From: a virus | Taxonomy: Duplodnaviria; Caudoviricetes | DNA: 64,000 bases | Strand: one strand, 5' to 3' | Virus record (IMG/VR): IMGVR_UViG_2844540631_000002 | Coordinates: 14,262 to 78,261 of that record | In this document: positions 5,875-32,170 of the stretch, piece after piece | Layout of the letters: each line of letters opens with the position of its first letter | Position numbering within the stretch: the stretch's first letter is position 1 | Notes under the pieces: model-generated | The model's database searches: none | What the model was told of the DNA's origin: nothing | The model's input: the letters and a program-made list of their open reading frames with translations, nothing else | Made by a program: the position numbers and the translations under genes

Positions 5875-6468
5875 CTACTCCCCCTTGCCGCCCGTTGCCT
5901 TGCCAATGATGCCGGCGATGCGCTCCGCGTAATGGAGGACCGAGTGCCACGTCACCCACCAACTGGTGGTGGCGACCTTCAGGTAGATGAACCAGAAAGG
6001 CCGACCAGCCGCCGACATCGCATTGATTCGTTCAAGCGCGTCGCCAATCTCCTCGCTGGCCAGTCGTTTTGGCACCCACATCGACAGCAAGTCGAGCATC
6101 CACGTGGCTCGTTGAACGGTTGGGTGCCCGCCACGCGCCATGAGGGCTCCGGCGGTTGTTGAGAAGGCACGCCCAATCGCTCGTGCCATGCGGATATGCA
6201 AGGGACTTGAAACCTGCTCACGCTCAGGCCGGAATTGTTCAAGGCCTTTGCCGTTCGGTCTGCTCATCTCAGCGAGGAACCAGCTCTCATTGGGACGAGT
6301 TTTCCCACGGAGCGGAGGGGCGGAGCGTTGTGCAGCCGCGCGAAGGAGTTTGCGCTGGAGCTCAACAATGGCTGCGCGGGAGAGGCAATCCGGATCGAAA
6401 CACTGGTGCTCGGCGTCAGGCCTCAGGCGCGAGAAGGATTTCTTCAAGTTGCGAGAGCGCTGCTTCAT
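5875..6468 (-). CDS. PadR-associated putative membrane protein
   Basis: Coupled to PadR stop; EEIGDALERI segment and Trp-rich hydrophobic C-terminus; true start uncertain. Confidence 0.5.
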   Translation of the reverse strand: MKQRSRNLKKSFSRLRPDAEHQCFDPDCLSRAAIVELQRKLLRAAAQRSAPPLRGKTRPNESWFLAEMSRPNGKGLEQFRPEREQVSSPLHIRMARAIGRAFSTTAGALMARGGHPTVQRATWMLDLLSMWVPKRLASEEIGDALERINAMSAAGRPFWFIYLKVATTSWWVTWHSVLHYAERIAGIIGKATGGKGE

Positions 6469-6779
6469 GTGAGCGCCTCCGTTGGAACCAGCCCAAAGAG
6501 TCCTGAAAGAGCTTGCCGTTGCTCCGTTGCCGCGCGGCGCCCCTCGCCGGTTAGTTCGTAGTACCGGCGCGGGCGCCCACCCCGTTCTGGAACCGGCTCG
6601 CCATCAAAGCTGCGTAGCAGCCCGTCGCGCTCCATCGCTCGGAGTGCAGGGTAGACGGTACCCTCAAGCAGGGTGATGCTCCCCCCGGTTCGCTCCCGGA
6701 CCTGGTCGATGATTTCCAGGCCGTAGCTCTTCCCTCGTGTGAGCACGGCCAGGATTGCTGCCTGTGTCAGTGACGTCAT
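6465..6779 (-). CDS. PadR-family transcriptional regulator
   Basis: SYGLEII...GTVYPALRAMERDGLL...GRPRRYYELTGEGR. Confidence 0.92.
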   Translation of the reverse strand: MTSLTQAAILAVLTRGKSYGLEIIDQVRERTGGSITLLEGTVYPALRAMERDGLLRSFDGEPVPERGGRPRRYYELTGEGRRAATEQRQALSGLFGLVPTEALT

Positions 6780-6889
6780 GACCGGATAGTAATCTCAGGT
6801 TTCGGGGTTGCAACCTAGAATCATGAGAATTGGTCTCCTTGTGGGCGTCCAGGTGGAGGAGGCGAGCCCGTATCCGACCTTCCTTCCGA

Positions 6890-7510
6890 ATGGCTCCTCG
6901 CCGGACGGTGTCCACGCTGCCCGGGAGACTCCTCCCTGTGGCAAGCAAGCGTCGCAGGCAGTCCAGCTCCAGCCCTGGCCCGAAGGCCCCCGCTGAGTCC
7001 TCGCGGGCGCTGACGGCGAAGCAGCGCCGGTTCGCCGAGCTGTACGATGGCAACGGCACGGAGGCCGCGCGCCAAGCCGGGTACTCAGGCAGCGACAACG
7101 TCCTGGCCCAGACCGCCCGGGGGCTCCTCAGAAATCCTCACATTCGCGCACTCATTGACGCGCGCGAAGGGAAGCAGGTCGGCCCCCGCATCGCCACGCG
7201 GGAGCAGCGACAGGCCTTCTGGACTGAGGTGATGGGGGACGTAGACGAGGCGACGTTGGCTCGCCTCAAGGCGTCGGAACTCCTGGGCAAGAGCCAGGGG
7301 GACTTCCTCGAGCGGGTGGAGATGGCCGGCAAGGGCGGCGGTCCCGTCCAGGCCGAGGTGAAGGCCGACGTGAAGGCCGAGGTGAAGCATGTCGAGCCCG
7401 ACCCCGAGCGTATTGCAACCATCGCAGCCATTCTCGCCCGGCTGGGTGCGCTCCCTGCCCCCGGAAGCACAGAGCCAGCTCGCGCGGCTGATGGAGCCGC
7501 GCATGACTAA
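6890..7510 (+). CDS. terS: Terminase small subunit
   Basis: LTAKQRRFAELY..NGTEAARQAGYS...LLRNPHI; RLKASELLGK; precedes TerL. Confidence 0.9.
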   Translation: MAPRRTVSTLPGRLLPVASKRRRQSSSSPGPKAPAESSRALTAKQRRFAELYDGNGTEAARQAGYSGSDNVLAQTARGLLRNPHIRALIDAREGKQVGPRIATREQRQAFWTEVMGDVDEATLARLKASELLGKSQGDFLERVEMAGKGGGPVQAEVKADVKAEVKHVEPDPERIATIAAILARLGALPAPGSTEPARAADGAAHD

Positions 7511-8774
7511 GTACGTGCCGCACCGGCCGCACGCCACCCAGGCGGCATTCCTCCTGCTGGGCGCGGTGCGCGAGGTGCTCTTCGGTGGGGCCGCAGGCGG
7601 CGGCAAGTCCGATGCGCTCCTCATGGCGGCGCTTCAGTACGTCGATGTGCCGGGGTACGCCGCCGTCCTCTTTCGGCGCACGTACCAGGACCTGAACCAG
7701 CCTGACGCGCTGATTCCCCGCAGCAAGGCGTGGTTGATGGGGACGGATGCCCACTGGGACAAGGAGCTTCACCAGTGGAGCTTCCCCGCGGGGAGCGTGC
7801 TGAAGTTCGCGTACCTTCAGCACGCGGACGACGTCTACAACTACCAGGGCGCGGCGTACCAGTTCATCGGCTTCGACGAGGCGACGCAGTTCACCCAGCC
7901 CATGTACGACTACCTTCATGGGCGCCTGCGCAAGCCGGAGTCCATGGATGTGCCGCTGCGCATGAGAGGGAGTGCCAACCCCGGCGGCATTGGCCATGAA
8001 TGGGTGAAGGCGAAGTTCATCGACGTCCCGCCCAGCAGTGAAGTCGCATTCGTGCCCTCGAAGCTGGAGGACAACCCCAGCCTCAACAAGGCGGAGTACG
8101 AGAAAAGCCTCGCCGCCATCGCAGACCCTGTCCTGCGGATGCAGCTCCGCCACGGCGACTGGAATGTGCGCCCGGCAGGCAAGCTTTTCCGCCGCGAGTG
8201 GTTCCACTTCGTGGATGAAGTGCCGGCCGGACTGCGGTGGCTGCGCTACTGGGACCTGGCCGCCACCGAGGAGCGCGTGGGGGCCAGGGGCAAGCCCAAG
8301 AACGACCCGGACTGGACGGCGGGCGCCAAGGTGGCGGTGCGGAAGCTGGAGGGCGGCGCGCACGAGCTGTGGATACGGGACGTGCGCCGCATCCGCGGAA
8401 CGCCCCGCGAGGTGGAGTCCTTCATCCGCGCAACGGCTGAGGAGGATGGGCGGGCCGTCCCAATTTGGCTTGAGGAGGAGGGCGGCAGCAGCGGGAAGAA
8501 CACCACCTACAACTACACCGCGCGCGTCCTTTTCGGCTTCACCGTCCGCGGGCACCGGAAGACGGGCAGCAAGGTGGAGATGTGGGGGCCGGTCAGCTCT
8601 CAGGCCCAGGCTGGAAACGTGCACCTGCTGCGCGGTGCATGGAACAGCTGGTGGGTGGAAGAAGCCGTGGCCGCTCCGAACCCAGGCGTCCACGACGACG
8701 GGCTGGACGCGGTCGCCGGCGGCATGGCGGTGGCGTCCGCCCCCTCTAGCACCATGAACGTGGGGAGCTACTGA
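7503..8774 (+). CDS. terL: Terminase large subunit
   Basis: GGAAGGGKS Walker A; FIGFDEATQF Walker B; ANPGG; YWDLAAT and HDDGLDA nuclease motifs. Confidence 0.95.
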   Translation: MTKYVPHRPHATQAAFLLLGAVREVLFGGAAGGGKSDALLMAALQYVDVPGYAAVLFRRTYQDLNQPDALIPRSKAWLMGTDAHWDKELHQWSFPAGSVLKFAYLQHADDVYNYQGAAYQFIGFDEATQFTQPMYDYLHGRLRKPESMDVPLRMRGSANPGGIGHEWVKAKFIDVPPSSEVAFVPSKLEDNPSLNKAEYEKSLAAIADPVLRMQLRHGDWNVRPAGKLFRREWFHFVDEVPAGLRWLRYWDLAATEERVGARGKPKNDPDWTAGAKVAVRKLEGGAHELWIRDVRRIRGTPREVESFIRATAEEDGRAVPIWLEEEGGSSGKNTTYNYTARVLFGFTVRGHRKTGSKVEMWGPVSSQAQAGNVHLLRGAWNSWWVEEAVAAPNPGVHDDGLDAVAGGMAVASAPSSTMNVGSY

Positions 8775-9274
8775 TGCCCGGCGCGTGTGCGAAGCCCGCG
8801 GAGATTGCTGCCTCGCTGTACGTGGCGGATGGGTACCGCGCCTGGCTGGCCCAGTCCGCCGTGGCGAAGGCGGCCCGCCTGGCGCGCGCCGCTGCGCCGC
8901 TGGAGACGGGCGGCATGCTGCTGGGGCAGGTGGTGGACGGCGAGGCCCACGTCTTCGCAGTGACAGGGCCGGGGCGGAAGGTGCGCCTCGCCCGCTACAC
9001 CTTCGAGTCGGACAGGGCCCGCGACAACCGGTTGGTGCATCGCGTGTGGCCGCGCCTGCGCTACCTGGGCGACTGGCACACGCACCCGGGCGGCCGGCCC
9101 GTGCTGTCCGCCATGGACCTCGCCTCCATTCGCGAGACGCTGACGCCGGACAGGCCGGAGTTGCTGGAGCTGCTGCTGGCGGGCCCGCCGGGCATGGAGT
9201 CCTTCGAGGTGGCCCTCTTCACCATGGTGCGTGGTGAGGATGCGCCGCGGCGCATGACAGGAGGTGGCGAGTGA
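8774..9274 (+). CDS. Stand-alone JAB/MPN (JAMM) metallopeptidase
   Basis: PLETGGMLLG plus WHTHPGGRPVLSAMD fits E...HxHx7Sx2D; TGATG overlap with terL. Confidence 0.85.
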   Translation: MPGACAKPAEIAASLYVADGYRAWLAQSAVAKAARLARAAAPLETGGMLLGQVVDGEAHVFAVTGPGRKVRLARYTFESDRARDNRLVHRVWPRLRYLGDWHTHPGGRPVLSAMDLASIRETLTPDRPELLELLLAGPPGMESFEVALFTMVRGEDAPRRMTGGGE

Positions 9275-9483
9275 TGGCCGCCCGTCACCGCCCAGGGAGT
9301 GGCAGGCGCCTACGCGGCCGAGGCCTTCCGCTGGCTGCCCGGCGTGACTCCGTCTGGGTGGTGGTGCGCTTCTCCGCGCACCTGGAGGACCCGCACCGTC
9401 GCCGGCTGACGCGCCTGGCCTCGGACACCTGGGCCTACGTCCACCTGCGGCGCCAGGGCAACGCGGAAGAGGGGAGGGCCTGA
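9271..9483 (+). CDS. Small basic hypothetical protein
   Basis: Coupled between JAB gene and portal. Confidence 0.4.
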   Translation: MMAARHRPGSGRRLRGRGLPLAARRDSVWVVVRFSAHLEDPHRRRLTRLASDTWAYVHLRRQGNAEEGRA

Positions 9484-9484
9484 C

Positions 9485-10981
9485 ATGGCGGCGAACAAGG
9501 TGAACGCGCAGAGCAGCGCGTATAGGGACATGCTGCCGGACTGGCAGTTGGTGTTGGACTTGATGGGCGGCACCCGGGCCATGCGCGCGGCCGGAGAGCG
9601 GCACCTGCCGCGCCACCCCCGTGAGACGCCGAAGGAGTACCGGGCGCGACTCAACCGCACCTTCCTCTTCAACTACTTCACCAAGGTGCTGGGGAGCCTC
9701 GCCGCCAAGCCCTTCGCCAAGCCCGTGCGGCTGGGCGACGCTGCGCCGGAAGAGCTGCAGGCCCTGGCGGATGACGTGGACCGGCAGGGGCATGACCTCA
9801 CGGCGTGGGCCCGCCCCGTCTTCGCGGACGGCTTGGCGAAGGGCTTCACCCACTTCCTCGTCGACTTCCCGGTGGTGGACCCGGAGAGGGTGAAGACGCT
9901 GGAGGACGAGCAGCGCGCGGGCGTCCGCCCCTACTTCGTCCACATCCCCGCTGAGGCCCTCATCGCGGCCTACTCCGAAGTGGTGGATGGCGTGGAGCGC
10001 CTCACGCACGTGCGCTTCCGCGAAACGGAGGTGCGCATGGTGGGCTACGCCGAGGTTGTGGTGGAGCGCATCCGTGTCCTTGAACCGACGAGGTGGGAGG
10101 TCCACGAGCGCGTCGGCAACGGCGGATGGACGCTGGTGGAAGACGGGGAGAACCAGCTGGGCTTCATCCCCCTCGTCACCTGGTACGCCGGCGAGCGCAA
10201 GGCGCTCATGCAGGCCCGGCCGCCGTTGTTGGACCTGGCCTTCAAGAATGTGGAGCACTGGCAGTCGGCCAGCGACCAGCGCAACGTCCTCACCGTGGCG
10301 CGCTTCCCGATGCTCGCGGCGTCTGGTGTGTCGCCGCCGTCGGGTGGGGAGGGCCAGGGCGAGGACAGCAACAAGCTCACCGTCGGCCCGCACACGCTGC
10401 TCACCACGGAGAGCCCGCAGGGGAAGTTCTACTACGTCGAGCACGGCGGGGCGGCCATCGCCGCTGGTCGCCTCGACTTGGAGGACCTGAAGGACGAGAT
10501 GGCGGCGCTCGGCATCGAGCTGCTCGTCAAGCGCTCCGGCACGGCCACGGCCACCGAGAAGTCCATCAACGAGGCGAAGAGCCAGAGCGAGCTTCAGGCC
10601 ATGGCGGAGAGCTTCGGGGACGCCCTTGAGTTGGGCCTCCACTTCGCTGCTCAGTGGATGCGGCTCCAGGTGGATGACGCCTCGCTGAAGGTGCAGGTGC
10701 ACACCGACTTCGGGCTGACGGAGCAGGACAAGCAGGACCTGGACGTCCTCTTCAAGGCGCGAGCGAAGGGCGACATTTCACGCGAGGCCTTCCTCGCCGA
10801 GCTCAAGCGCCGGGGCGTCCTTGCGCCGGACTTTGATGCGGCCCTGGACGCGGATCGGCTGATGTCCGAGGGCCCGCCCCTGGGCACCTTCCGGCCCGCT
10901 CCCTCGGCGCTCGGCGCTGGGCGCGCGCCAGCCGCCGCTCCAGTGCCTGGGGACGCTCCCGCTTCAGGAGGTGCCGCGTGA
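9485..10981 (+). CDS. Portal protein (DUF4055-like)
   Basis: Position; W.LV.DLMGGTRAMRAAGERHLPR..RE...YRARL; RPPLLDLAFKNVEHWQSASD. Confidence 0.9.
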   Translation: MAANKVNAQSSAYRDMLPDWQLVLDLMGGTRAMRAAGERHLPRHPRETPKEYRARLNRTFLFNYFTKVLGSLAAKPFAKPVRLGDAAPEELQALADDVDRQGHDLTAWARPVFADGLAKGFTHFLVDFPVVDPERVKTLEDEQRAGVRPYFVHIPAEALIAAYSEVVDGVERLTHVRFRETEVRMVGYAEVVVERIRVLEPTRWEVHERVGNGGWTLVEDGENQLGFIPLVTWYAGERKALMQARPPLLDLAFKNVEHWQSASDQRNVLTVARFPMLAASGVSPPSGGEGQGEDSNKLTVGPHTLLTTESPQGKFYYVEHGGAAIAAGRLDLEDLKDEMAALGIELLVKRSGTATATEKSINEAKSQSELQAMAESFGDALELGLHFAAQWMRLQVDDASLKVQVHTDFGLTEQDKQDLDVLFKARAKGDISREAFLAELKRRGVLAPDFDAALDADRLMSEGPPLGTFRPAPSALGAGRAPAAAPVPGDAPASGGAA

Positions 10982-11349
10982 CGTCCGTTCGCTTCGATAG
11001 GAGGTGGGACGTGCGTCGCAACGCAGAGGGGCGCGTCGTCCTCACCCTGGACGAGAACTTCTACTACGGCAGTGAGGGCGAGGATTGGGAGTCCGTGCAG
11101 ACCGCGCGGACTACCATCGTCCTCGCTGAGACGCTGGGCAGGGACATCTGGGCGTCCGTCCACAAGCAGCGGGGCAACGCCATTGAGCTGGCCCTCAAGG
11201 ACGGGGCCCGGGTGACGAGCGTGGAGGTGCCGCCTCCGTCGGAGGAGCCTCGGTCCAAGTCCTGGCGAGTCCGGGGCGCCGAGCTGGCGCTGCGCGCGGT
11301 GCACCACCTGGTGGACGAAGTGCGCCGCCGCGAGCGGGGAGGGGCATAA
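10978..11349 (+). CDS. Hypothetical protein between portal and MuF
   Basis: GTGA coupling; abuts MuF start. Confidence 0.5.
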   Translation: MTSVRFDRRWDVRRNAEGRVVLTLDENFYYGSEGEDWESVQTARTTIVLAETLGRDIWASVHKQRGNAIELALKDGARVTSVEVPPPSEEPRSKSWRVRGAELALRAVHHLVDEVRRRERGGA

Positions 11350-12567
11350 GTGGCCACCACCCGCCGCACAGCCAACGAGGAAATCCTCGAGCGGACCATC
11401 GCGCACTCCGTGCAGGTGGAGCGCTACAAGGCGGGCACCGTCCGCCGGGTGGTGGAGCTGCTCAACGCCACCGAGGAGAGCCTCGAAGCGCAGCTGGCCG
11501 TCCGGGTGGAGCGCATCCTCGCAGCGGGTGGCTTCGATGCTGGGCCGGAAACCACCGCACGCCTGCAGGAGCTGCTGGAAGTGGTGGGCGGCGTGCGCGC
11601 CGAGGCATACGCCGCGGCGGCCGGCTTCCTCCGCGAGGAGTTGTCCGTCTTCGCCGCCTACGAGGCCCAGTGGCAGGCGGCGCTGCTCCAAGAGACGCTC
11701 ATCGTCGAGTTGGGCGTCGTGGCCCCGTCCGCGGAGGTGCTGCGCGCGGCCGTCTTCGAGCGCCCCTTCGCCGGCGCTGTCTTCGAGCACTGGGTGGAGG
11801 CGCTTCCGCCCGCCGACCTGGAGCGGATTTCCCGGGCCGTCCAGGTGGGCGTCGTGGAGGGGCAGACGACGCAGCAGATTGTCCGGAGCGTGGTGGGCAC
11901 CCGCGGGGCCTCGTACACGGACGGCGTGGTGGAGATGTCGCGGCGCAGCGCGGAGACGCTGGTGCGCACCTCCCTCAACCACGCCTCCACGCAGGCCCGT
12001 GAGGAGGTGTACCGGGCCAACGAGGACATCATCGAGGAGGTGCGCTGGGTGGCCACGCTGGACGGCCGCACGACGCTGGGCTGCATCGCACTGGACGGCA
12101 AGACGTTCCCCACGCGCGAAGGCCCGCGACCGCCCAGGCACCCCGGGTGCCGCTCCTCAACGGTGCCGGTCATCAACGGGGTGAAGCTGGTGGGCGACAG
12201 GCCGGCCGTCACCGACGCGCGCACCCGGCGCCAGCGGGAAATCGACTTCCGCGCGGAGGCGAAGGCGAAGGCCGGGGCCGCGTGGAAGGACATGTCCGAG
12301 AAGGAGCGGCGCGGTGCCATCGCCCGCGTCCGTGAGAAGTGGGCGCGGGAGAACATCGGCCAGGTGCCCAAGGGGCTGTCCTACGAGGACTGGCTGCGCC
12401 GTCAGTCCGCCAGCTTCCAGGACGAGGTGCTGGGCCCCACGCGCGGGCAGCTCTTCCGCAACGGCGGGCTCAGCGTGGACCGATTCACCGACGCGAGCGG
12501 CAAGACGTTGACGTTGGAGGCGCTCCGCGAGGCGGAGGCCGAGGCTTTCAAGAAGGCGAAGTTGTAA
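11350..12567 (+). CDS. Head morphogenesis / minor capsid protein (MuF, SPP1 gp7 family)
   Basis: WVATLDGRTTLGCIALDGK...PPRHPGCRS. Confidence 0.9.
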   Translation: MATTRRTANEEILERTIAHSVQVERYKAGTVRRVVELLNATEESLEAQLAVRVERILAAGGFDAGPETTARLQELLEVVGGVRAEAYAAAAGFLREELSVFAAYEAQWQAALLQETLIVELGVVAPSAEVLRAAVFERPFAGAVFEHWVEALPPADLERISRAVQVGVVEGQTTQQIVRSVVGTRGASYTDGVVEMSRRSAETLVRTSLNHASTQAREEVYRANEDIIEEVRWVATLDGRTTLGCIALDGKTFPTREGPRPPRHPGCRSSTVPVINGVKLVGDRPAVTDARTRRQREIDFRAEAKAKAGAAWKDMSEKERRGAIARVREKWARENIGQVPKGLSYEDWLRRQSASFQDEVLGPTRGQLFRNGGLSVDRFTDASGKTLTLEALREAEAEAFKKAKL

Positions 12568-12597
12568 CCGGCCCACTGGGCCGAGAAGGGAAGCGGT

Positions 12598-13353
12598 ATG
12601 GATTTCGAGTGGCAGACGGAGTTGGACGCGGTGGACATCGTCCCCGAGAAGTTCCGCAACCTGTACGCGAAGGGGGACAGCGGGAAGTTCGCGCTCGACG
12701 CCGACGTGGCGAAGCGCATGGACACCACGGGACTCAACACCGCCCTGGAGAAGGAGCGGAAGAACAACAAGGTGCTCGCGGAGGCGCAGAAGGCCTGGAC
12801 GAAGCTGGGCAAGGCCCCCGAGGAGGTGGAGAAGTCACTCGGAGAGCTGAAGGCTGCACTCGCCAAGGCGCAGGAGGGGAAGGACGGCGCTGCCAACTTC
12901 GAGAAGCTGAAGGCCGACCTCGAGTCCGGCCACGCGAACGCGCTCAAGGAGCGTGACACCGTCGTCGAGCGCATGCGGGGCAGCCTGCACAAGCACCTGG
13001 TGGAGGCGGAGGCGACGGCCGCCATCGCGGAGCTGAAAGGGAGTGCAGTGCTCCTCTTGCCTCACGTCCAGAAGCATGTGAAAGTGATTGAGGAAGGTGG
13101 CCACTTCTTGGCTCGGGTTGTTGACGCAGAGGGGGATCCTCGCGGCAACGGCAAGGGCGGCTTCATGACGATTCGGGAGTTCGTCACGGAGCTCAAGAAG
13201 GACACCAACTTCGCTCGGGCCTTCGAGGCTTCGGGTTCCTCCGGTGGCGGGACGCCTGCGGGGGGCAAAGCGGGCGGGATGCCCGGTGGTACCGAGAAGC
13301 TCGGTGCTCCGCAGAAAATCGCGGCGGCTCTGGCGGCTCGACGCAACAAGTAG
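12598..13353 (+). CDS. Capsid scaffolding protein
   Basis: Charged coiled coil upstream of capsid; C-terminal SGSSGGG...KIAAALAARR. Confidence 0.75.
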   Translation: MDFEWQTELDAVDIVPEKFRNLYAKGDSGKFALDADVAKRMDTTGLNTALEKERKNNKVLAEAQKAWTKLGKAPEEVEKSLGELKAALAKAQEGKDGAANFEKLKADLESGHANALKERDTVVERMRGSLHKHLVEAEATAAIAELKGSAVLLLPHVQKHVKVIEEGGHFLARVVDAEGDPRGNGKGGFMTIREFVTELKKDTNFARAFEASGSSGGGTPAGGKAGGMPGGTEKLGAPQKIAAALAARRNK

Positions 13354-13402
13354 CCCTCGGTGCGCGGGATGCGGCCGGAGGCAAACCGAGCGGGATGCTC
13401 GG
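13241..13402 (+). promoter_or_regulatory. Four hairpins with GGGA(U/C) pentaloops upstream of the capsid gene
   Basis: GGC-GGGAC-GCC (loop 13249-53); CGGGC-GGGAT-GCCCG (13271-85); interrupted stem around GGGAT 13366-70; CCGAGC-GGGAT-GCTCGG (13386-402). Confidence 0.55.
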
Positions 13403-13520
13403 CCGCTGTCCTCTCTCGACTCCACACTACACGTGCGCGCCAGGGCCCGAGTCGCCTTCCGCCCTTGGCGCGTCCGCAATCCCTCTCAGCCTCCCTCTCA
13501 CCGAGGAGGAGCGACACCCC

Positions 13521-14456
13521 ATGGCTTCAATCACCCTGGCCGAATCCGCGAAGCTGTCTTCCGACGCCCTTGTCTCCGGCGTCATCGAAACCATCGTCAC
13601 CACGGACCGGCTCTTCGAGCGGCTGCCCTTCGACGAGTTGGAGGGCAACTCCTTCACCTTCAACCGTGAGTCGGTGCTCGGCAACGTCGAGGTGCTGGGC
13701 GTCGGTGGCACCATCACCGCGAAGAACCCGGCCACCGTCGAGCAGGACACCGCGACGCTCACCCGCATCATCGGTGACGCCGAGGTGGACGGGCTCATCC
13801 AGGCCACGCGCTCCAACGTCAACGACCAGGAGGGCTACCAGATTGTGTCCAAGGCCAAGTCGGCCGGGCGCAAGTTCCGCAGCATGTTCATCAACGGCAC
13901 GGGGCTCAGCAACGAGTTCCCCGGGCTGCTGGCGCAGGCGGCGGCGGGGCAGACGCTGGTCGCGGGGACGAATGGCGCCCTCTACGACGTCGGCTTCCTG
14001 GACGAGCTCATCTCCAAGGTGAAGGCGAAGGACGGTGAGGTGGACTTCATCACCATGGCGGAGGTGATGCTCAACCGGCACTACGCGTACCTGCGCAAGC
14101 TGGGCGGCGCGAGCATCAGCGAGGTCATCACCCTGCCGAGTGGGAAGACGGTGCCGGCGTACCGCGGCATCCCCATCTTCGTGAATGACTACATCCCCAC
14201 CAACCAGACGGAGGGGACGGCGACGGACTGCACCAGCATCATCGCGGGCTGCTTCGACGACGGCAGCCGAAGCGTGGGCATCGCCGGGCTGACGGCGCCG
14301 GGGGATGCAGCGGGCATTCACATCAAGGAGGTGGGTGAGCACCAGGAGAAGGACGAGCGCATCACCCGCGTCGTCTGGTACTGCGGCACGGCCGTCTTCA
14401 ATGACTACGCGCTCGCCGTCGCGAAGGGCATCCGCACCGCGCCGCTGGCCCCCTGA
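13521..14456 (+). CDS. Major capsid protein
   Basis: GAGGAGGAG RBS; MASITLAESAKL..D.L..GVIETI; FNRE..L; position. Confidence 0.9.
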   Translation: MASITLAESAKLSSDALVSGVIETIVTTDRLFERLPFDELEGNSFTFNRESVLGNVEVLGVGGTITAKNPATVEQDTATLTRIIGDAEVDGLIQATRSNVNDQEGYQIVSKAKSAGRKFRSMFINGTGLSNEFPGLLAQAAAGQTLVAGTNGALYDVGFLDELISKVKAKDGEVDFITMAEVMLNRHYAYLRKLGGASISEVITLPSGKTVPAYRGIPIFVNDYIPTNQTEGTATDCTSIIAGCFDDGSRSVGIAGLTAPGDAAGIHIKEVGEHQEKDERITRVVWYCGTAVFNDYALAVAKGIRTAPLAP

Positions 14457-14475
14457 GCCACTCCCCACGCATTTC

Positions 14476-14510
14476 GCGGGGAGGCGTGCTGCCTCCCCGC
14501 TCCCTCTTTC
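14476..14510 (+). terminator. Probable intrinsic terminator after capsid gene
   Basis: Perfect 10-bp stem GCGGGGAGGC/GCCTCCCCGC then pyrimidine tract. Confidence 0.6.
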
Positions 14511-14526
14511 CACAGCAGGAGCAGTC

Positions 14527-14985
14527 ATGGACGGCATTCGGATGATTCTGGTGGGCCCCAACGAGGGCAAGGACATCACCCTGGGCGGCTTCACCTTCGA
14601 GGACGGTGAGTTGGTGCTGCCGCCGCGCAGCAGCGGGCCCGCGCAGCGCATCCTCTCGCGCTACTACAGCGCGTTTCCCGAGGGCAGCGTCGAGGGGCGG
14701 AAGGCGAAGGAAGCCTATGAGCGGGCGCGGCGTGGCGGCGCCGGTGCCGCTCTCCCCGCGGTGGGCACCACGCAGTCGGAGGCGGACGGCCAGGTCCGCG
14801 AGCTGCGGCAGGCCCTCGACGAGGGCATGTCGGAGCTGGAGCGGGTGAAGGCCGAGCTGCGCGCCGCGCAGGCGCAGCTGCGCGACGCGACGCAGACGTC
14901 CCCCCCGCCGCCTCCGGCGCCTGTGCCTGCCCCCGCCGAGGAGCCGCCCGCCGCGAAGGGCAAGGCCAAGGCGAAGGCGGAGTAG
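14527..14985 (+). CDS. Hypothetical head-associated protein
   Basis: AGGAG RBS; lies between capsid and connector genes. Confidence 0.6.
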   Translation: MDGIRMILVGPNEGKDITLGGFTFEDGELVLPPRSSGPAQRILSRYYSAFPEGSVEGRKAKEAYERARRGGAGAALPAVGTTQSEADGQVRELRQALDEGMSELERVKAELRAAQAQLRDATQTSPPPPPAPVPAPAEEPPAAKGKAKAKAE

Positions 14986-30371: not shown

Positions 30372-31103
30372 ATGGACCCCTCTGGCCTGTCGTCGCTGGT
30401 GGATGTCGTCATCGAATCCGCTCGGGCCCACGCTCGAATTGAGTACCCACGCGAGTCGTGCGGCCTCGTGGTGCTTGTGAATGGCATGCCACAGTACGTC
30501 GCGTGCCGTAATCAGGCCGAGGGGCAGGCCCACTTCATCCTCCACCCGGAGGACTACGCGCGGGCGGAGGCGGAAGGGGAGGTGGTGGCGGTGGTGCACT
30601 CCCACCCCAACGCGGCCCCGGAGCCGAGCGAGGCGGACCGCGTCAGCATGGAGCGCTGGGGCCTGCCCTGGCTCATCGTCAACGTGCCCGTGGGCCACTG
30701 GCGGCTGTGGCACCCCACCGGGTACCGGCCGCCGCTGGTGGGCCGCCCCTTCAGCCACGGCGTCCTGGACTGCTTCTCCCTCATTCGCGACTACTACCAG
30801 GAGCGGCTGGGACTCGAGCTGCCCGACTTCCACCGGCCGGACGGCTGGTGGGACAAGGGCGGCAACCTCTACCTGGACGGGTACGCCGAGGCGGGCTTCG
30901 TGGACGTCACCGGCCAGGCGCTGCGCGAGCATGACGTGCTCCTCATGCAGCTGCGCGCGCCGGTGCCCAACCACGCGGGCGTCTACCTGGGGGCGGACGT
31001 CGTCCTCCACCACCTCCAGAATCGCCTCTCTGGAAGGGAGACGTACTCGGGCTTCTGGGAGCGAATCACCCGGAAGGTCGTCCGACACCGCACCCTATGC
31101 TGA
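30372..31103 (+). CDS. Tail tip assembly protein K (JAB + NlpC/P60)
   Basis: PRESCG; VHSHPNAAPEPSEAD; DCFSLIRDYY; NHAGVYLG. Confidence 0.92.
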   Translation: MDPSGLSSLVDVVIESARAHARIEYPRESCGLVVLVNGMPQYVACRNQAEGQAHFILHPEDYARAEAEGEVVAVVHSHPNAAPEPSEADRVSMERWGLPWLIVNVPVGHWRLWHPTGYRPPLVGRPFSHGVLDCFSLIRDYYQERLGLELPDFHRPDGWWDKGGNLYLDGYAEAGFVDVTGQALREHDVLLMQLRAPVPNHAGVYLGADVVLHHLQNRLSGRETYSGFWERITRKVVRHRTLC

Positions 31104-32170
31104 CAACGGTGGTACTCGGAGGGCCGCTGGGCCGGCACTTCGGCCGCGTCTGGCGGTTGGACTTGAGCGTGCCTTCGCCCGCCGAGGCCGTGCGCGCCCT
31201 CTCGGCGGTGTGCGAGGGCTTCGCGCGGTATCTGGTGGAGCACAGCGAGCCGGGCTTCCACGTCTTCGTCGGCAAGCGCGACGTGGGCCAGGACGAACTG
31301 GCGCGCCCGGCTGACGCGCCCGTCATCACCGTCATTCCGGCCCTGGCCGGGGCGAAGGTGGGCGTCTTCCAGGTGGTGATGGGGGCCGTGCTCATCGCAG
31401 GCGGCGCGGTGCTCTCGGCCTACGGCTTCGGTGTGGGTACGCCCCTCATCACCATGGGCGCATCCCTGGTGGTGGGCGGTGTCTCGCAGATGCTCTTCGC
31501 GCCGCCCGCACCTGCGGCCCCGGACGAGGAGCCGAAGAACAAGCCCAACTACGCCTTCAACGGGCCGGTGAACACGCTGGCGCAGGGCCACCCGGTGCCC
31601 ATCTGCTACGGCGAGCTGGAGGTGGGCAGCTGCGTCATCTCCGCGGGCATTGTCACCGAGTGGAGCGAGGGCGGCGGCTTCGGTGGCAAGTACGGCAGCG
31701 GGCAGACGGGGCCGGGCGGGCAGGGACCCTCGGGCGGTGGGTGTCCGGCACCATGGGTGCCCATTCTCCTTGCGGACGGGCGGGAGGTGCCCGCCGGCGA
31801 GGTGGAGGTGGGCATGCGCGTCCTCACCCAGCACGAGACGACGCTGCGGTGGGGCGCGTACCTCGTCACCGACGTGGCCCTCTTGGAGGCGGAGTGCTGG
31901 CGGTTGGAGCTGGAGGACGGCCGCGCCTTCGTGGGCACGTACAACCACCGCGTGCGCACCGAGGCGGACTGGGTGGAGCTGCGGCACCTAGTGCCCGGCA
32001 CGCTGCTGCTGGGCGCCCAGCCCGGCGTGGTGCGGGAGGTGGTGGCGTGCGGACGTGGGCCGGTGGTGCGCATCACCGTGGACGGGGCGCACACGTACCA
32101 GACGCTGAGCTTCCTCTCGCACAACGCCAAGCGCGCAGACCCGGAGGCACCGCATGAAGTCGAAATCTGA
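31097..32170 (+). CDS. Tail tip assembly protein I with C-terminal Hint domain
   Basis: gpI motifs (AEAVRAL; NYAFNGPVNTLAQGHPVPICYGE); Hint from CPAP (31742) with TYNH to SHN (32125). Confidence 0.88.
   Translation: MLTTVVLGGPLGRHFGRVWRLDLSVPSPAEAVRALSAVCEGFARYLVEHSEPGFHVFVGKRDVGQDELARPADAPVITVIPALAGAKVGVFQVVMGAVLIAGGAVLSAYGFGVGTPLITMGASLVVGGVSQMLFAPPAPAAPDEEPKNKPNYAFNGPVNTLAQGHPVPICYGELEVGSCVISAGIVTEWSEGGGFGGKYGSGQTGPGGQGPSGGGCPAPWVPILLADGREVPAGEVEVGMRVLTQHETTLRWGAYLVTDVALLEAECWRLELEDGRAFVGTYNHRVRTEADWVELRHLVPGTLLLGAQPGVVREVVACGRGPVVRITVDGAHTYQTLSFLSHNAKRADPEAPHEVEI

Follow-up and report, generated by a model that had tools for sequence, protein, structure and literature searches.

Among the closest described systems to the protein analysed here is Cap3 of type II CBASS (VC0181/TIGR02256; NF050170; 9ild), a stand-alone, single-domain JAB protein of ~160 aa. 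Overexpressed Cap3 abolishes CD-NTase conjugates and restores phage plating, and Cap3 is reported to be highly specific for the tail of its own CD-NTase (10.1101/2022.03.31.486616). In a B. cereus system, deconjugation by Cap3 was suggested to leave the cyclase primed, not silenced (PMC11153139). CBASS signalling starts late in infection, with prohead proteases among its triggers (PMC12991175). A type II CBASS of M. xanthus is part of a locus that defends against phage Mx4 (PMC11506125). Phages also encode JAB proteins in virion modules. The gpK type carries a JAB domain in the tail module, and Hor et al. speculated that this tail DUB domain serves as an anti-Bil measure (10.1101/2023.09.04.556158); Mycobacterium phage Patience gp19, a ‘protease’, is a small stand-alone JAB in a head module. 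Of the known anti-CBASS factors, namely the Acb1 nuclease, the Acb2 and Vs.4 sponges and the CapV inhibitor ICP3 Gp15, the last is a virion protein (10.1101/2025.07.23.666291). They share the outcome proposed below for the protein described here, a weakened CBASS; unlike that proposal, they all target either the nucleotide signal or the effector, and they are not JAB proteins. The literature searched, which was incomplete, yielded no paper on a phage-encoded Cap3 homologue or JAB anti-defence enzyme. To our knowledge, phage answers to CBASS all act on the nucleotide signal or the effector and none reverses ubiquitin-like conjugation, and we know of no phage enzyme that counters bacterial E1-E2 systems.

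Here we describe a stand-alone JAB gene in the head operon of a provirus from a Myxococcus genome. The window, that is, the whole stretch of DNA analysed (64,000 nucleotides), covers positions 14,262 to 78,261 of IMG/VR record IMGVR_UViG_2844540631_000002. Its relevant features, all on the plus strand, are as follows.

6830 to 7510, plus strand: TerS, start codon uncertain (Pfam Terminase_2, 6e-11; phrog_51)
7389 to 8774, plus strand: TerL ‘type A’, 461 aa (phrog_979, 1.3e-100; Terminase_6N/6C)
8774 to 9274, plus strand: predicted orphan Cap3-like JAB/JAMM isopeptidase, 166 aa
8903 to 8905, plus strand: codon of the catalytic Glu44 in PLETGG, invariant in 40 homologues
9077 to 9118, plus strand: zinc-binding and catalytic motif H102-x-H104-x7-S112-x2-D115, invariant alignment columns
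9274 to 9483, plus strand: orf70, small conserved protein (GC3 0.85 in frame; tblastn 57-68% in diverged sister prophages)
9485 to 10981, plus strand: portal protein (DUF4055, 1.2e-37; phrog_145, 9.6e-125)
30372 to 31103, plus strand: gpK-type tail assembly protein, JAB plus NlpC/P60 (PF14464, 9.7e-16; NLPC_P60, 9e-13)

The genes follow the order TerS, TerL, JAB, orf70, portal, orf123, Mu-F-like, scaffold and MCP, and terS to the capsid gene form a single run without gaps that includes the JAB gene (the head JAB). The terL stop codon TGA (8772-8774) shares a base with the JAB start codon ATG (8774-8776), giving TGATG with GGGGAG upstream, and the JAB stop and orf70 start overlap likewise (TGATG at 9272-9276). 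The product of orf70 is Arg-rich, 69-70 aa long and without a Pfam match; the gene is coupled to the end of the JAB gene, stops a single nucleotide short of the portal ATG and is missing from five sister prophages. No promoter-like or terminator-like site was detected in 6400-14700, and profile searches of the head-module genes recognised no prohead protease. The head JAB is flanked by TerL and orf70/portal, with no Cap2, cyclase (CD-NTase) or effector gene beside it and no Ubl, E1 or E2 gene adjacent. The gpK-type gene encodes the only other JAB in the provirus record. The original prediction had claimed a complete JAB motif, TGATG coupling to terL, separateness from the gpK JAB and a location inside the head operon, and each of these can be read in the sequence; it also called the gene late-expressed, a timing that gene order would suggest.

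The 166-aa ORF contains an exact E...HxHx7Sx2D motif, made up of E44 (in PLETGG), H102-T-H104, PGGRPVL, S112, AM and D115, and these five catalytic residues (E44, H102, H104, S112 and D115) are unchanged across an alignment of 40 homologues. Pfam Prok-JAB matches above its curated cut-off (E 4.5e-12). An AlphaFold2 model built from the 40-homologue alignment has a mean pLDDT of 90.6; in Foldseek, the Cap3:CD-NTase complex 9ild ranked first (E 9e-11; residues 11-165 aligned, rmsd 2.4) and Rpn11 next (2.7e-7), with no BilC or Bub structure among the matches listed, so that kinship with that family may still hold. Motif, profile score and MPN fold thus all agree with membership of the JAB/JAMM (MPN+) family. 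The top profile matches are the PADLOC CBASS ‘JAB’ (Cap3) models, down to E 6.3e-19. These models score a genuine myxobacterial Cap3 (L135) at 168 bits, five other phage orphans at 60-88 bits, the window protein at 66 bits and Patience gp19 at 22 bits, and do not match the phage’s own gpK JAB. The NCBIfam models matched are CBASS Cap3, TIGR02256 (the VC0181 family of V. cholerae) and the 6A-MBL cap2_3 fusion, and none came near its curated cut-off (NF050170, 32.2 versus 200 bits; TIGR02256, 41.3 versus 127.6 bits). On this sequence evidence, the head JAB is assigned to the Cap3-like branch of JAB isopeptidases and not to the gpK branch, and is not an equivalog of CBASS Cap3.

The head JAB resembles Cap3 in size, stand-alone single-domain architecture and motif. 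It differs in lying in a phage late operon with no Cap2, CD-NTase or effector neighbour, in scoring far below the curated cut-offs, and in having an extra N-terminal beta-hairpin of ~20 residues that is kept in the phage clade, which sits on a long tree stem. Like the gpK type, it is a phage-encoded JAB within a virion module, and an anti-Ubl idea has been voiced for both; unlike it, gpK belongs to another JAB branch and is a core gene, encoded next to gpI among the tail genes, with its JAB joined to NlpC/P60. Patience gp19 is likewise a small stand-alone JAB in a head module, but is encoded between the portal and capsid genes, not after TerL. Its similarity to the head JAB is marginal (BLASTP, 24% over 66 residues, E 0.001 in a single comparison; BFVD Foldseek, E 2e-3).

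Homologues at 60-89% identity are confined to Myxococcus and Corallococcus, and all others are at most 45% identical. The nearest of these by identity (38-45%) come from Cap2/JAB modules that lack a CD-NTase. At 38-45%, the proteins closest to the head JAB in pairwise identity are the JABs of cyclase-less modules (for example L004, L005 and L058) and of 6A-MBL systems (L035, L050 and L057), which share with it a YLGDWHTHP block; unlike the head JAB, they are always coupled to an E2-E1 gene and are chromosomal, in defence-island-like settings with BrxR/WYL regulators. Across non-myxobacterial cellular loci in GTDB genomes, a Cap2-like ORF with ThiF and Prok-E2 domains (PADLOC E1-E2 models, 1e-27 to 1e-29) ends at the JAB start in 74 of 77, the position that TerL occupies in the prophage copies. 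Some of the Cap2-linked loci are 6A-MBL systems; most have no CD-NTase and carry small ORFs upstream, often with a divergent BrxR/WYL regulator. Maximum-likelihood analysis grouped the 13 prophage JABs in a single clade (SH-aLRT 97), whose long stem lies inside the Cap2-linked radiation. A phylogeny had been proposed with the original prediction, and this tree sets the prophage proteins apart from gpK as a single group. Because its root rests on one very long gpK branch, it does not show whether the gene moved from cells to phages or from phages to cells. Recent capture from the host’s own CBASS can be ruled out, since Myxococcaceae Cap3s are just 27-34% identical to the head JAB. The search for longer forms found one E2/ThiF/JAB fusion and no fusion of a JAB to a phage structural protein.

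We note that L004, L005 and L058, together with ~60 further GTDB loci (L034-L110), represent a widespread two-gene module of a Cap2-like E2-E1 protein and a Cap3-like JAB without a CD-NTase. One of the small ORFs ahead of this module encodes a YdjM-like membrane protein. The module appears to be an uncharacterised conjugation system. The lysogen Myxococcus sp. Y35 also has a third, chromosomal JAB (L124) beside a MoeB/ThiF-type E1, an APS kinase and an asparagine-synthase-like gene, and this locus looks like a metabolic cluster of the sulphur-carrier type rather than a defence system.

The JAB gene is optional within its prophage lineage. A synteny survey of JABs between terL and portal had been suggested along with the original prediction, and it bears out the linkage: all 13 Myxococcaceae prophage copies have the JAB first after TerL. 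Six layouts of the TerL-portal junction occur in the lineage.

Layout 1 (the window): TerL-A, JAB, orf70, portal
Layout 2: TerL-B, JAB, orf70, portal
Layout 3: TerL-B, JAB, orf178, orf70, portal
Layout 4: TerL-B, JAB, orf178, portal
Layout 5: TerL-B, JAB, portal
Layout 6 (provirus G064): TerL-B directly before portal, no JAB between

Provirus G064, which is 90% complete, encodes homologous TerL, portal, Mu-F, scaffold and MCP (83%, 71% and 80% identity for TerL, portal and Mu-F, respectively); its sole JAB is gpK, with none in the head module, so the JAB gene is accessory and not needed for head assembly. The wider portal family points the same way. With the JAB as tblastn query, none of 50,697 cultured phage genomes matched at E <= 1e-3, and the same portal family is present in 301 cultured phages, all of them without a JAB homologue. 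In the two cultured phages whose upstream portal gap was inspected, Xoo-sp2 and PaMx74, a DNA ligase gene and hypothetical genes lie directly upstream of the portal, in Xoo-sp2 together with a polynucleotide kinase gene. This head type therefore has no need of the JAB; the gap serves as a cargo site. Its left edge is also mobile: the window and a sister locus (L031) are 87% identical in JAB and 94% in portal, yet their TerL types are unrelated, and the presence of two unrelated TerL types ahead of the JAB therefore indicates recombination points between terL and JAB. The large terminases swapped ahead of these near-identical JAB-portal modules measure 461 aa (7389-8774) and ~518 aa (L031:4508-5998). 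In the closest pairs, dN/dS is 0.23-0.42 for the JAB versus 0.11-0.18 for the portal, and JAB dN/dS is <1 across the 13 diverged copies. By these ratios, the JAB is under purifying selection, somewhat looser than that on the portal.

Another gene at this junction, encoding 178 aa, follows the JAB in sister prophages (L003:6492-7028; also L009-L011, L013, L015, L016 and L032). Its product begins MTCIAG, as expected of an N-terminal-Thr hydrolase, and has >2,600 relatives, which share ~60% identity even between phyla and lie in varied surroundings; relatives carry the JGI name ‘HslV peptidase subunit’, and in Atlas 12-15% of cluster members, most of them viral, carry Pfam Proteasome. It is found with or without orf70, and the JAB is also found without it.

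Orphan Cap3-like JABs recur in other phages. The YLGDWHT block, the sole usable pattern, is present in 23 of 2.9 million IMG/VR contigs, and a scan with the phage-JAB alignment returned the same 23. These comprise the Myxococcaceae clade, five contigs with a Cap2 gene and seven orphans, which represent five lineages and have intact catalytic residues. In all five lineages the orphan lies in a virion-assembly module, and in four of the five it is beside TerL or portal, with differing portal types.

L022 (record complete, 93 kb): TerL, JAB, 96-aa ORF, lambda-type portal
L023/L024: T7-type portal, Bbp19-like protein, JAB, 248-aa ORF, MCP
L021: Mu portal, Mu-F, phrog_26, JAB
L027: JAB, then gpA-type TerL
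L019: phrog_578 connector protein, then JAB

In the tree, these orphans require at least three further losses of Cap2 linkage. Their recurrence beside terminase or portal genes in unrelated phages suggests a rule for finding more such genes. New here, as far as we know, are the JAB-less sister prophage, the tally of Cap2 linkage and the five further phage lineages.

As an optional gene, the head JAB is most likely a tool of viral counter-defence. Its intact invariant motif, confident model, affinity to the Cap3 family and missing Cap2 partner all favour a deconjugase, and we give an even chance to the more specific reading that it reverses conjugation by a Cap2-type system of the host. Time and again, phages would have acquired the deconjugating partner from a Cap2/Cap3 pair, which in a lineage of temperate Myxococcaceae phages would have persisted as an optional cassette directly behind terL in the late packaging and head operon. 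Judged by gene order, the JAB would be made together with the virion proteins. As a zinc isopeptidase, it would then cut the C-terminal (iso)peptide bond of a protein conjugated by the host Cap2-type E2-E1, a moiety that in type II CBASS would be the CD-NTase. By undoing a conjugation step on which the defence depends, such cleavage would weaken that defence, making the protein a phage copy of the host’s off-switch. An anti-defence deconjugase had been part of the original prediction, and this core is strengthened by the Cap3-like branch, the lost Cap2 partner, the optional gene and the type II CBASS of the host family; the further idea that it strips virion proteins as a counter-measure to Bil is unsupported.

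Several observations speak against a deconjugase of this kind. A product of the late operon would seem to come late for reversing conjugation that is already in place before infection, an objection that is softened because CBASS is triggered late in infection (PMC12991175). The protein fails the Cap3 cut-offs and is only 27-34% identical to Cap3 of the host family, for an enzyme class with reported tail specificity. Its nearest relatives, at 38-45%, are in modules without a CD-NTase, and Cap3 of B. cereus was proposed to have a priming role (PMC11153139). Among 61 genomes sampled from the host family, only three had type II CBASS operons. Finally, the recurrent position in head modules could point to a role in head assembly instead.

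That role would be that of a morphogenetic protease acting on a head or packaging protein (portal, Mu-F, scaffold or TerL), which the JAB would trim or mature, as in the head JAB ‘proteases’ of actinophages. The constant place first after TerL with overlapping stop and start codons fits such a role, as do the orphan JABs that five other lineages carry among virion-assembly genes (next to TerL or portal in four lineages), the location of the Patience gp19 ‘protease’ between portal and capsid genes, and a head module in which no prohead protease was recognised. However, heads that assemble with scaffold plus Mu-F (SPP1, P22-like assembly) need no protease, G064 has homologous head genes without a head JAB, none of the 301 cultured phages that share its portal family has a JAB homologue, and Patience gp19 shows no more than marginal similarity (24% over 66 residues; 22 bits against the CBASS JAB models). 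We therefore consider a morphogenetic protease unlikely.

A phage deconjugase stays our preferred reading, and it has a wider version in which the head-module orphan JABs of at least six unrelated lineages would be a new class of counter-defence that erases host Cap2-type conjugates. In the boldest form, the JAB would be packed in the capsid with portal and Mu-F and ejected with the DNA, removing pre-formed conjugates at the start of infection. The packaged anti-restriction proteins of P1 and T4 are a model for delivery in the capsid, and the virion protein Gp15 may serve, by analogy, as a partial precedent. We hold this wider version to be distinctly unlikely.

Another explanation places the function in the lysogen, where the JAB would damp auto-activation of the lysogen’s own Cap2 system, or treats the gene as the remnant of a captured defence system with no current role. 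The gene does reside in a prophage, its relatives belong to defence operons, and the lysogen C. carmarthensis has a Cap2-linked JAB elsewhere in its genome. Against this, no promoter-like site was found for the gene itself, which overlapping codons tie into the late operon, no Cap2, cyclase or effector is nearby, and the retained catalytic residues together with dN/dS <1 across 13 diverged copies mean that it is not a decaying relic; we regard this explanation as very unlikely. A phage-internal ubiquitin-like circuit, in which the head JAB and gpK process the phage’s own beta-grasp tail protein gpI or its conjugates, could draw on the presence of two JABs in one phage and on a gpI (31097-32170) that joins a Lambda_tail_I domain to a ~270-aa extension, but is highly improbable, given that the JAB-less G064 keeps the extended gpI (79% identical over residues 1-353), the complete 93-kb phage G070 has a head JAB and no gpK-type JAB, gpK already adjoins gpI, and a Pfam search of gpI found no Hint domain at E <= 0.001. 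In gpI (31097-32170), Lambda_tail_I spans residues 5-86, and residues ~195-350 recur at 51-52% in a second, larger ORF of three sister records.

If the head JAB does reverse host Cap2-type conjugation, it would be the first phage enzyme to reverse bacterial ubiquitin-like conjugation, through a stolen off-switch isopeptidase, and a phage parallel to the deubiquitinases and deISGylases of animal/eukaryotic viruses. It would also provide a genetic handle on the cyclase-less Cap2/JAB modules.

Three RNA-seq runs with the same species label, from strains apparently without the prophage, gave almost no reads on 6500-14500 except on a 35-nt stretch of the capsid gene (14157-14191). The reads on this stretch carry one C>T at 14172 and have flanks unlike the window; they probably derive from a look-alike in an expressed host gene or another prophage gene.
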